Assembly: GCF_017348835.2 (NCBI RefSeq)
Contig: NZ_CP071375.1
Origin: Escherichia coli
GTDB taxonomy: Bacteria; Pseudomonadota; Gammaproteobacteria; Enterobacterales; Enterobacteriaceae
DNA: 64,000 bases
Reading direction: 5' to 3' (one strand)
Shown here piece after piece: positions 12,001-15,000 of this stretch. The position numbers were made by a program. Numbering within the stretch: position 1 is the stretch's first letter; the number at the start of each line of letters is the position of its first letter.

Positions 12001-15000
12001 TTTGCCTTCACCACGCTGGAAGTCACGGAATGAAAAAAGACCGTATTAGCTGATTTACGGAAAATATGTACTCCACAAGCGTCAATATCAGACGAGGCCT
12101 GGGAAAAGATAATGTTGTCTGATGAAAGTAATCAGCAGCACATCCGTGAGGCTATTGTGGCGATGGAACGCAATAACCAGAACAATTACTGGGAAGCGTT
12201 AGGCAAGGTTGAATGCCCGGATATGTAGACGTGAAGCCGCAGCTTCACGTCTACATTTAGCACTTAACGTGAACGTACATCGGGAATAATTAAATCACCG
12301 CGCAGAACATATGAACCCAGCATCGTCTGCGTCTTCTCGTTAAGCCAACTGACTATGCGGGCGGCCATTTCGTCCAGCGAATATTCTATCGCCGGAATGG
12401 TCGGTATCCCCGGAAGATGAACAGTACCCGCCAGACTAAATACCATAATGTCCTCAGGAACAGATTTATTAAACGCCTGCAATTGCGGTATCACCCGCTG
12501 CGCTTGCTGTTCATCAGCAACTAATAACGCATTAAAGTTCAGTGTTGAGGCGTTATTTAGCAGCTCCTGCAAAGCCACTGAGGAAGAGATTGCTTCCATA
12601 AAAACCAGATTACGGTTAAAGGGAAGAAAGTTTTTCTCCAGCGCGTGTTTATAGCCCAGTAAGACCTGGTCAGAAAATCCCATACCGTGTGGGTGGATGA
12701 GGGCGATTTGGCGTCTGTTCTGACTTATCAGATAGTTACAAGCGGTTTCAGTCGCGAATGTGTGATCGAACTGAATACTGTTAACATCATTACCCGTCTC
12801 AAGGCAGTCCACCAGTATCACGTTTTCCTGATGAATATTCAGTGGGAAACGCGCACCAATAATCAGTACGTCATCACACAAACCACAGCTCAGCTCATCA
12901 AGGGCGTTCTTTACCTCGGCTTTATTGCTGGCGAAGCGAAGAAGTAGATGTTTTTGATGCTGGCTGAGATGTTTTTCCAGAGCGTAAAGATAACCGGTGG
13001 TCTGATTAATGTTTTCCTGAGCACAAATTACACCGATACAGCCCGTAGATTGCGTCAGCAGTGACTGCGCAATGACATTGGGACGATAGTTTAGCTCTTC
13101 GACGGCTTTCAATACCGCGAGACGGCTGGCTTCTTTAACACCACGCGATCCGCTCAACACCCGAGAAACCGTCGCTTTTGAAACGCCAGCCAAACGCGAT
13201 ACATCATTGATAGTAGACATCATTCTCCCCTGACAGAGCGGCCCTGGCTCCCACAATCCTGAATTCCTGTTGGCTTAAATATTAGCCGTTCGCAGTATAA
13301 CTGTTTCCGTTTTCTAATGGAAACCGATTTTCCATGGCATCTCAAAACTGAGCTAATAATGATAAAAATGTGAACAGAATCGAAATAATAACGCGACTTT
13401 ATAGCGAAATCTGATAGCCGTTACAGTTTATGTTTCCATGAATGGAAACCGGTTTCCAAATGATATCAAATCAATTGCGAAATAGATTTTTACATTCAGA
13501 GGATGTGTCAGATGGTCAGGATTATGTTGTGTTGCTCTGCGGGGATGTCAACCAGTCTGCTGGTGAAAAAAATGGTTGAGGCCGCAGAAAGCAGAGAGCT
13601 ACCGGTAGAGATAGATGCCTACGGAGTTTCCGAATTTGATATTCAGTTTCCAAAATATCAGGTGGTGCTACTCGGACCGCAGGTAAAGTATATGTTAAAC
13701 ATGCTCGCAGAAAAGGCCGCCCCCCAGGGAATACCCGTAAAAGCCATTGATATGGCGGACTACGGAATGCAACGGGGTGACAAGGTGCTGGATTACGCTC
13801 TGTCGCTCATTGCAGCGACACATTAGAAAGGTGTCATTATGAGTTCGTTATATCAATCAATGGTAGCCGTTATTGAACAATCCATCACACCGCTTGCCGG
13901 GAAGCTGGGGCAGCAAAAATATGTGATTGCCATCCGGGACGGTTTTACTGCCGCTCTACCGTTTATGATCATCGGTTCGTTTATGCTGGTGTTCATTTTC
14001 CCACCGTTTTCGGCTGAAACAACCAACAGTTTTGCCCGAGGCTGGCTGGATTTCTCCGCCACCTACCGTGAACAGCTAATGTTGCCATTTAACCTCAGTA
14101 TGGGAGTGATGACTTTCTTCATCTCAGTAGGAATCGGTGCCAGCCTTGGGCGACAGTTTAATCTCGATCCGATTATGTCTGGCTTGCTGGCATTTATGGC
14201 ATTTTTACTGGTCGCAGCGCCTTACGCTGACGGCAAAATATCGACTCAATATCTTTCCGGGCAAGGTATTTTCACTTCGCTGATTACCGCGATTTATGCC
14301 ACTCGTGTATACGCCTGGTTAAAACAACACAACGTGACAATCCGCTTACCCAAAGAAGTCCCTACCGGGGTGGCGCGTTCCTTTGAGATCCTTATCCCGG
14401 TTCTGGTGGTCATTGCTACGCTACACCCACTGAATCTGTTTATTGAAGCCCAGACTGGAATGATTATTCCTGAGGCGATCATGCATCTTTTAGCGCCACT
14501 GGTCTCTGCCTCTGATTCTCTGCCTGCAATTCTGCTGTCTGTTCTGATGTGTCAGATTTTCTGGTTCGCAGGTATTCATGGTTCACTGATTGTAACAGGC
14601 ATCATGAATCCCTTCTGGATGGCAAACCTGTCGGCAAATCAGGCAGCTCTTGCCGCTGGCGCAGCACTTCCTCACGTTTATCTGCAAGGTTTTTGGGATC
14701 ACTACCTGCTGATTGGCGGCGTCGGCTCGACGCTACCGCTGGCGTTCTTGCTGTTACGCAGCCGTGTTGCTCACTTGCGTACCATCGGAAAAATGGGCGT
14801 TGTCCCCAGTTTTTTCAACATCAATGAGCCTATTCTGTTCGGTGCGCCGATCATCATGAATCCGATGTTGTTTATCCCGTTCGTTTTCGTGCCAATTATT
14901 AACGCCATCCTGGCCTATACCGCGACCAGACTGGGCTGGCTGGCACAGGTTGTCTCATTAACGCCATGGACCACACCTGCTCCAATTGGTGCCTCCTGGG

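Follow-up and report, generated by a model that had tools for sequence, protein, structure and literature searches.

A probable 5'-truncated yicS copy and its stem-loop at the left end of an islet between ade and uhpT in Escherichia coli

Results and Discussion

The small ORF downstream of ade and its identity

The window analyzed here is a stretch of 64,000 nucleotides from Escherichia coli (contig NZ_CP071375.1, assembly GCF_017348835.2). Downstream of the adenine deaminase gene ade it carries a small open reading frame (ORF) whose stop codon lies in a perfect hairpin, followed by the stop codon of a convergent gene for a LacI-family regulator. The initial annotation of this region had considered a gene remnant, a small protein, or an island boundary with its terminator. 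The evidence presented below indicates that positions 12034-12228 are very probably a dead, 5'-truncated copy of yicS, that the hairpin is the yicS stem-loop and that both form the left end of a relocated islet.

An ORF finder reported an ATG ORF of 38 codons at 12112..12228 (+), stop included. The ORF and its translation were those first described, although the coordinates given then, 12111..12227, were shifted by one base. Its frame is open upstream from 12112 to 12034, the codon next to the ade stop codon TGA (12031-12033), so that the full open frame is 64 codons (12034-12228, with the stop) and not 38, translating as KKTVLADLRKICTPQASISDEAWEKIMLSDESNQQHIREAIVAMERNNQNNYWEALGKVECPDM. A Pfam search with the 38-residue peptide gave no match; YicS was identified with the 64-codon extension, using NCBIfam and BLASTP. 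The 64 codons aligned without gaps to residues 34-97 of the 97-residue periplasmic protein YicS of K-12, with 57 of 64 residues identical (89%, E 5e-45), and matched the NCBIfam YicS family model NF041639 at positions 33-96 of 96 with 96.4 bits, against a cut-off of 45. Compared with the full-length YicS of the genome deposited as E. coli SCPM-O-B-8794 (L004), the remnant differs by a single residue, M59I.

The ATG of the 38-codon ORF corresponds to Met60 within yicS. What is absent amounts to 33 codons of yicS, covering the start codon, the hydrophobic N-terminal leader and the residues immediately following it, and no in-frame upstream start was found in the window, the homology beginning at residue 34 directly past the ade stop codon. 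The leader, MKPTTLLLIFTFFAMPGIVYA, is probably a signal peptide, as read by eye rather than predicted by a tool. These results favor the gene remnant among the options considered, the ORF being the 3' remainder of a yicS-family gene; its sequence is indeed conserved in related genomes, which had been suggested as a check, but solely as part of yicS. The 38-codon ORF would be simply what an ORF finder reports from the first internal Met, and a working protein is not expected. Since the sequence reaches the family score but is not a complete coding sequence, it is classed here as a pseudogene of the YicS family rather than as a member gene. In agreement with this, the RefSeq/PGAP label in every carrier examined is 'YicS family protein; incomplete; missing N-terminus' (pseudogene). 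The feature is therefore already known from public genomes, and the categories involved (pseudogene, orphaned terminator, islet junction) are ordinary ones.

Strain PE164, 100% identical to the window over the compared region, retains an intact native yicS next to nlpA. In that genome native yicS and nepI are separated by an iatC/eilA/type-III locus, the end of which is window 1-5900. A literature search on YicS returned general background only, which associates the protein with motility, biofilm formation and invasion by avian pathogenic E. coli and with regulation by AggR (PMC8069529, PMC6392122).

The perfect hairpin

The hairpin was found exactly where the initial annotation had placed it, at 12223-12256, with a left arm at 12223-12237 (ATGTAGACGTGAAGC), the loop CGCA at 12238-12241 and a right arm at 12242-12256 (GCTTCACGTCTACAT), complementary at 15 of 15 positions. 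Both the last sense codon of the ORF (ATG, 12223-12225) and its stop codon (TAG, 12226-12228) lie in the left arm, and the stop codon of the LacI-family gene (TAA, 12264-12266, minus strand) follows 7 nt past the stem, again as described. The calculated folding energy was -24.3 kcal/mol for the plus strand RNA and -29.3 kcal/mol for the minus strand (z -7.2 in both cases), and none of 200 shuffles folded as stably. The window holds no longer perfect short-loop inverted repeat. Perfect stems did not exceed 13 bp in 200 block shuffles, so that none reached 15 bp; a smaller control of 30 block shuffles gave one 15-bp perfect stem, which we regard as a fluke because the analytic expectation for such a stem is about 5e-4 per window.

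Boundaries and distribution of the islet

In K-12, ade and uhpT are convergent and 45 bp apart, and a single hairpin, GCCCGGCGTCATGCCGGGC, occupies the spacer and doubles as the 3' end of the small RNA (sRNA) UhpU, which derives from uhpT. Comparison with this spacer, as had been proposed, showed that it is interrupted in the window by an islet of 6,975 bp (12032-19006): the K-12 sequence is broken after ...CACGGAAT (12031), between GGAAT and AATAAAAAAAG, and picks up exactly at 19007 (AATAAAAAAAGCCCGG..., also given as AATAAAAAAAGCCCGGCGTCATGCCGGGC). The islet contains the yicS remnant (yicS'), the LacI-family regulator, IIB, IIC and IIA components of a phosphotransferase system (PTS), a glycoside hydrolase of family 1, a porin and a DUF1198 gene (Table 1). 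The remnant is its left edge, and to this extent the suggestion of an island boundary was correct.

At the left junction there is a microhomology of 3 nt, AAT, common to the GGAAT of ade and to donor-type yicS, CAAAT-GAAAAAAAG. This makes the stop codon of ade a hybrid: the native TAA has become TGA, with T from the native codon and GA from yicS-derived sequence. Only 3-4 nt of microhomology were found at the junctions, neither a mobility gene (integrase, transposase) nor a tRNA is annotated in the ade-uhpT interval, and the islet would not be classed as an integrase-mobilised genomic island. The native hairpin GCCCGGCGTCATGCCGGGC is intact at 19017-19035, displaced by 7 kb to the right islet edge, which disposes of the possibility that the hairpin at 12223-12256 belongs to the native ade terminator. 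The islet begins immediately beyond the A/U-run of the uhpT/UhpU terminator (CUUUUUUUAUU on the minus strand), so that the UhpU sRNA looks untouched at its 3' end, while ade appears to have lost its adjacency to the native hairpin.

Among 5426 complete E. coli genomes, the ade-uhpT junction was uninterrupted in 5242. The segment comprising yicS' and the hairpin and the LacI gene were found in one identical set of 25 genomes, both at a single place in each and always with the same left junction, and a 26th genome, E. coli CUWW06, has a right islet end truncated by an IS1 that cuts within the porin gene. The exact boundaries given above are thus those of a rare islet (25/5426). About 160 of the 5426 genomes are without an uninterrupted ade-uhpT junction, and in E. 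coli DETEC-S792 an IS200C is located in the spacer.

The DUF1198 gene that closes the islet on its right encodes a protein 87% identical to that of the strain's own yicN (8253-8705 region) and 89% identical to that of L004 yicN. The two yicN-type genes of the window are 10 kb apart on the same strand, and these direct repeats could mediate loss of adeQ, ade and the islet.

Table 1. Features of the ade-uhpT region in the window
Feature	Position	Strand	Basis
ade (adeD), adenine deaminase, 588 aa	10267..12033	+	Pfam Adenine_deam_C, Amidohydro_1; RefSeq in identical genome
Left junction: AAT microhomology 12029-12031, A-run 12033-12038	12029..12038	+	Alignment with K-12 and L004
5'-truncated yicS pseudogene	12034..12228	+	BLASTP, NF041639, RefSeq pseudogene annotation
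LacI-family regulator, 318 aa, convergent with yicS'	12264..13220	-	Pfam LacI, Peripla_BP_3; RefSeq WP_000104282.1
Divergent promoter region with two palindromes	13318..13458		Read directly in sequence
Cargo operon	13512..18466	+	Pfam PTS_EIIC, Glyco_hydro_1; RefSeq annotation at an offset of 3033
PTS IIB	13512-13826	+	
PTS IIC	13839-15170	+	
Glycoside hydrolase family 1	15191-16588	+	
PTS IIA	16585-16887	+	
Carbohydrate porin	17087-18466	+	LamB-type model match, below cut-off
Second DUF1198 (yicN-like) gene, right islet end	18485..18937	-	
Right junction and native uhpT/UhpU terminator hairpin	19000..19035		Alignment with K-12; uhpU annotation in K-12

The hairpin in related bacteria

Spacers separating yicS from the LacI gene were extracted from 23 loci. 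In Escherichia, Citrobacter amalonaticus, Lelliottia, Huaxiibacter and two further lineages the yicS stop codon is followed by a core stem, (G/A)(A/G)CGTGAAGC-loop-GCTTCACG(T/C)(C/T), and the same core occurs in imperfect form in Citrobacter sedlakii and Citrobacter sp. MGH106. This 10-bp core stands directly 3' of the yicS stop codon in Escherichia, Citrobacter and Lelliottia, and the outer five pairs of the stem are specific to Escherichia. In Lelliottia the core runs into a U-rich tail (for example GCTTCACGCTTTTTTTT; U5-U8 in the orthologous hairpins), giving yicS an intrinsic terminator of canonical form. In this spacer there is a different canonical terminator in Leclercia (TTAAGGGGC...GCCCCCTTAATTTTTT) and an element resembling repetitive extragenic palindromic (REP) sequences in Enterobacter spp. 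(GCCGGGTGGCGCTGCGCTTACCCGGCCTAC); what is conserved is therefore a stem-loop and not this particular sequence.

Pairs were counted on an alignment of 12 sequences. Eight core pairs were invariant except in C. sedlakii, where two of them are unpaired, and two core pairs change on both sides between Escherichia and Lelliottia/Citrobacter (A-U/G-C and G-C/A-U). Since the events are few, these compensatory pairs lend what is probably modest support to a conserved structure. Because the same core follows the stop codon of full-length yicS convergent with the LacI gene in relatives, the hairpin is best read as an inherited yicS terminator with a decayed U-tract, and not as the native ade terminator. 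The initial suggestion of a terminator thus holds in that the hairpin is a terminator-type stem-loop found after full-length yicS.

Parted from the uhpT terminator, ade would probably be transcribed through the yicS remnant as a 3' untranslated region (UTR) of ~190-225 nt, and its transcript would end or pause at the hairpin; the mRNA of the LacI gene would meet the same hairpin from the opposite side. After the hairpin the plus strand continues with UUUAGCACUU (also given as UUUAGCAC), which offers only UUU, and the minus strand with AUAUCCGGG (also given as AUAUCCGG), which has no U-run. Because its U-tract is degraded, the hairpin would act no more than weakly as an intrinsic terminator, or would serve to stabilise 3' ends; it may halt some polymerases or shield 3' ends from exonucleases. 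The K-12 yicS-nepI pair is listed among convergent overlapping transcript pairs (PMC12288877). We found no such hairpin in that pair.

Some observations weigh against the interpretation of the hairpin and the islet given here. A consensus terminator scan called no canonical terminator at the hairpin on either strand, and the 3'-UTR and terminator roles are ones that we infer from the sequence. The two compensatory pairs separate just two lineages, with few independent events, and the shuffle control of the covariation score was mildly supportive (9/500). In addition, the last ~30 bp of the islet (18977-19006) have no counterpart in L004, and the exact donor was not found. Selection for a stronger stem, rather than mutational bias, could also account for the perfection of the stem discussed below.

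As for known RNA families, an Rfam scan of the whole window gave nothing at 12000-12300.

Source of the islet

The LacI-family protein was scanned against one genome per bacterial species, and the resulting loci were searched by local tblastn. The same cluster was present in many Enterobacterales, and a full-length yicS convergent with the LacI gene was found in L004, three Citrobacter, Lelliottia, Leclercia, Huaxiibacter and many Enterobacter. The gene order is yicS - cluster - nepI in Citrobacter and yicL - yicS - cluster - yicN - adeQ in L004. L004 is 95.3% identical to window 12029-18976 and 94% identical to the window's own yicN-adeQ. In Citrobacter, Lelliottia, Enterobacter and a divergent lineage of Escherichia the cluster thus has its native place beside yicS, and the copy described here is a relocated one; judged from this comparison, the islet is in all likelihood a relocated piece of an Escherichia-type, yicS-linked PTS locus of the beta-glucoside type.

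The segment would have been cut within yicS, at codon 33/34, on one side and upstream of the yicN-like gene on the other, and short A-rich microhomologies would have served to join it into the 45-bp spacer of ade and uhpT. Either a simple insertion or a duplication followed by deletion could have produced this arrangement. An origin of 18977-19006 as a 3' remnant of adeQ was considered, but the alignment made by eye is just about 50% identical. Among plasmid records, most of them chromosome-sized, only K-type yicS at 82-83% identity was found, and not the islet.

Variation among carriers and alternative explanations

Ten carriers were aligned with L004, and 14 carriers were typed for the junction A-run (12033-12038) and for the hairpin allele. 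L004 and 7 of the 14 carriers have a bulged A in the right arm, giving a stem of 10 bp, the bulge and 5 bp (-20.5 kcal/mol); in L004 the bulge position shows a 2-nt AC irregularity. In the window and five other typed carriers the bulged A is deleted and the stem is a perfect 15 bp. In strains A16 and ETEC6335 a matching T is inserted in the left arm instead, so that the stem is a perfect 16 bp and the stop codon is lost. L004 and the majority allele point to the bulged form as the older state, and the perfect stem would then be a recent allele. Quasipalindrome template-switch mutation has been described for E. coli (PMC7202029), and two complementary single-base indels, each perfecting the palindrome, would be its typical signature. 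The hairpin alleles provide a modest but clear-cut case, from natural isolates, in which an imperfect palindrome is perfected by two complementary routes.

Within the 64 codons, five nonsynonymous changes (A39V, W56R, M59I, N83K and P95S) and one synonymous change were found among the carriers; W56 and P95 are identical in the K-12 and L004 proteins. Combat11I9 has a 7-nt deletion in the remnant, probably shared by two more genomes of the same short length and identity, and the T insertion of A16 and ETEC6335 destroys the stop codon. In these small counts the pattern looks like relaxed constraint rather than purifying selection on the frame.

The A-run has 7 A in L004 and in 11 of the 14 typed carriers, and 6 A in the window, PE164 and RMDEC465; F2_81 was also assigned to the 6-A type, by sequence identity. 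In the 7-A carriers the yicS frame reaches an ATG inside the 3' end of ade, in another frame, forming a chimeric ORF of 79 codons. One could conjecture that the remnant has been co-opted, either as this chimeric cytoplasmic protein, arisen de novo and open to the 7-A majority, or as an RNA derived from the ade 3' UTR, which the hairpin would cap in all carriers, the hairpin alleles recording, separately, quasipalindrome correction or selection. We consider this very improbable.

We give still less credence to the 38-codon ORF or the 64-codon frame as a functional small protein, that is, a cytoplasmic core domain of YicS. No disruption of the ORF is seen in the window, where its sequence stays close to that of L004 yicS, and in 7-A carriers its frame extends to the 79-codon form; the good preservation is, however, explained by recent acquisition, and the allele of the A-run alters which upstream frame is open. 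The internal Met at which the 38-codon ORF starts has no clear Shine-Dalgarno sequence (GGGAAAAGATAATG), and the signal peptide of the secreted YicS is missing together with Cys44, one of its two cysteines. Moreover, the frame is broken in Combat11I9-type genomes, the stop codon is lost in two carriers, and nonsynonymous changes outnumber synonymous ones by five to one, two of them falling on W56 and P95. The small-protein option of the initial annotation is accordingly not supported.

Just as improbable, in our view, is that the palindrome acts as DNA, as an auxiliary operator of the LacI-family regulator, an att-like site or a REP-type mobile palindrome, and not as an RNA hairpin. A perfect 34-bp palindrome at the edge of an island, with a core whose sequence and not just its pairing is conserved across genera, would suit such a role. 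On the other hand, the hairpin lies 190 bp inside the islet rather than at the junction, in the same position after the stop codon as where yicS is native; the islet lacks integrase, tRNA and transposase; and in Leclercia and Enterobacter the same spacer is occupied by the other terminator or the REP-like element. The divergent promoter of the cluster contains two LacI-type palindromes, TGGAAACCGATTTTCCA (13318-13334, a 17-nt variant) and the perfect TGGAAACCGGTTTCCA (13443-13458), which are likely operators of the regulator. These are of the TGGAAACCGGTTTCCA type with a central CG and are unrelated to the hairpin core TGAAGC-N4-GCTTCA, for which no other good match was found in the window, and the operator reading was rejected. 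Each promoter palindrome overlaps a second inverted repeat, GTTTCC...GGAAAC. A dispersed repeat of the REP type or a bacterial interspersed mosaic element (BIME) was likewise rejected, the palindrome being present in one place per genome in 25 of 25 carriers and the window having no further copy when up to 3 mismatches are allowed.

Read-through of the ade TGA into an Ade-YicS' fusion protein is the least credible of these proposals: in the window the ade frame continues past the TGA for 64 codons before the stop of the remnant, but this in-frame state needs the 6-A run, the remnant being out of frame with the 7 A of 11 of the 14 typed carriers and of the donor-type gene, and no read-through signal is evident at the ade TGA. 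As the remnant is in frame with ade solely through the 6-A allele, there is no case for conserved read-through. Programmed read-through or frameshifting at the A-run was rejected too, since the stop codon comes before the A-run and most typed carriers lack the in-frame allele.

The strongly favored explanation remains a dead yicS stump with its stem-loop at the left end of the islet. Its value is mainly one of annotation hygiene: what looks like a neat small ORF closed by a perfect hairpin can be the stump of a gene together with an orphaned terminator. Slightly unusual are just two aspects, the series of alleles by which the palindrome becomes perfect and the chimeric ORF of the 7-A carriers.

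Other features of the window

At 7471-8137, between nepI and yicN, the window has genes for a RelE/ParE-family toxin and a helix-turn-helix protein that are absent from the K-12 arrangement. Positions 1-5900 (minus strand) cover the end of iatC, an inverse autotransporter gene of 6.2 kb; in PE164 this gene lies in the eilA/type-III locus (IpaD/SipD, YopB/SseC and SycD-like proteins), where eilA is frameshifted. Four Rfam matches were above the gathering score: istR (29757-29886, minus strand), a ROSE_2 thermoregulator (41646-41718, minus strand), the ES036 sRNA (47090-47132, plus strand) and AsdA, the antisense RNA of dnaA (52609-52689, plus strand).

Comparison with known systems

The native ade-uhpT/UhpU terminator directly follows ade in K-12, and the hairpin at 12223-12256 is unrelated to it in sequence. 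With intrinsic terminators between convergent genes the hairpin shares a G+C-containing stem-loop directly after a stop codon and between two convergent genes. It differs from canonical ones in that its U-tract falls short, its stem is unusually long (15 bp) and a stop codon lies inside the stem.

With quasipalindrome hotspots (Ripley 1982; Dutra and Lovett 2006) it has in common an imperfect inverted repeat that becomes perfect, here by two complementary routes; our case comes solely from the comparison of natural isolates.

The remnant shares with K-12 yicS (b4555) and NF041639 the C-terminal ECPDM end and residues 34-97 without gaps. K-12 yicS sits between nlpA and nepI and has no such hairpin after its stop codon, whereas the remnant sits after ade and has one. 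Its allele is of the L004/Escherichia-clade type and not of the K-12 type, with 83% DNA identity to K-12-type yicS.

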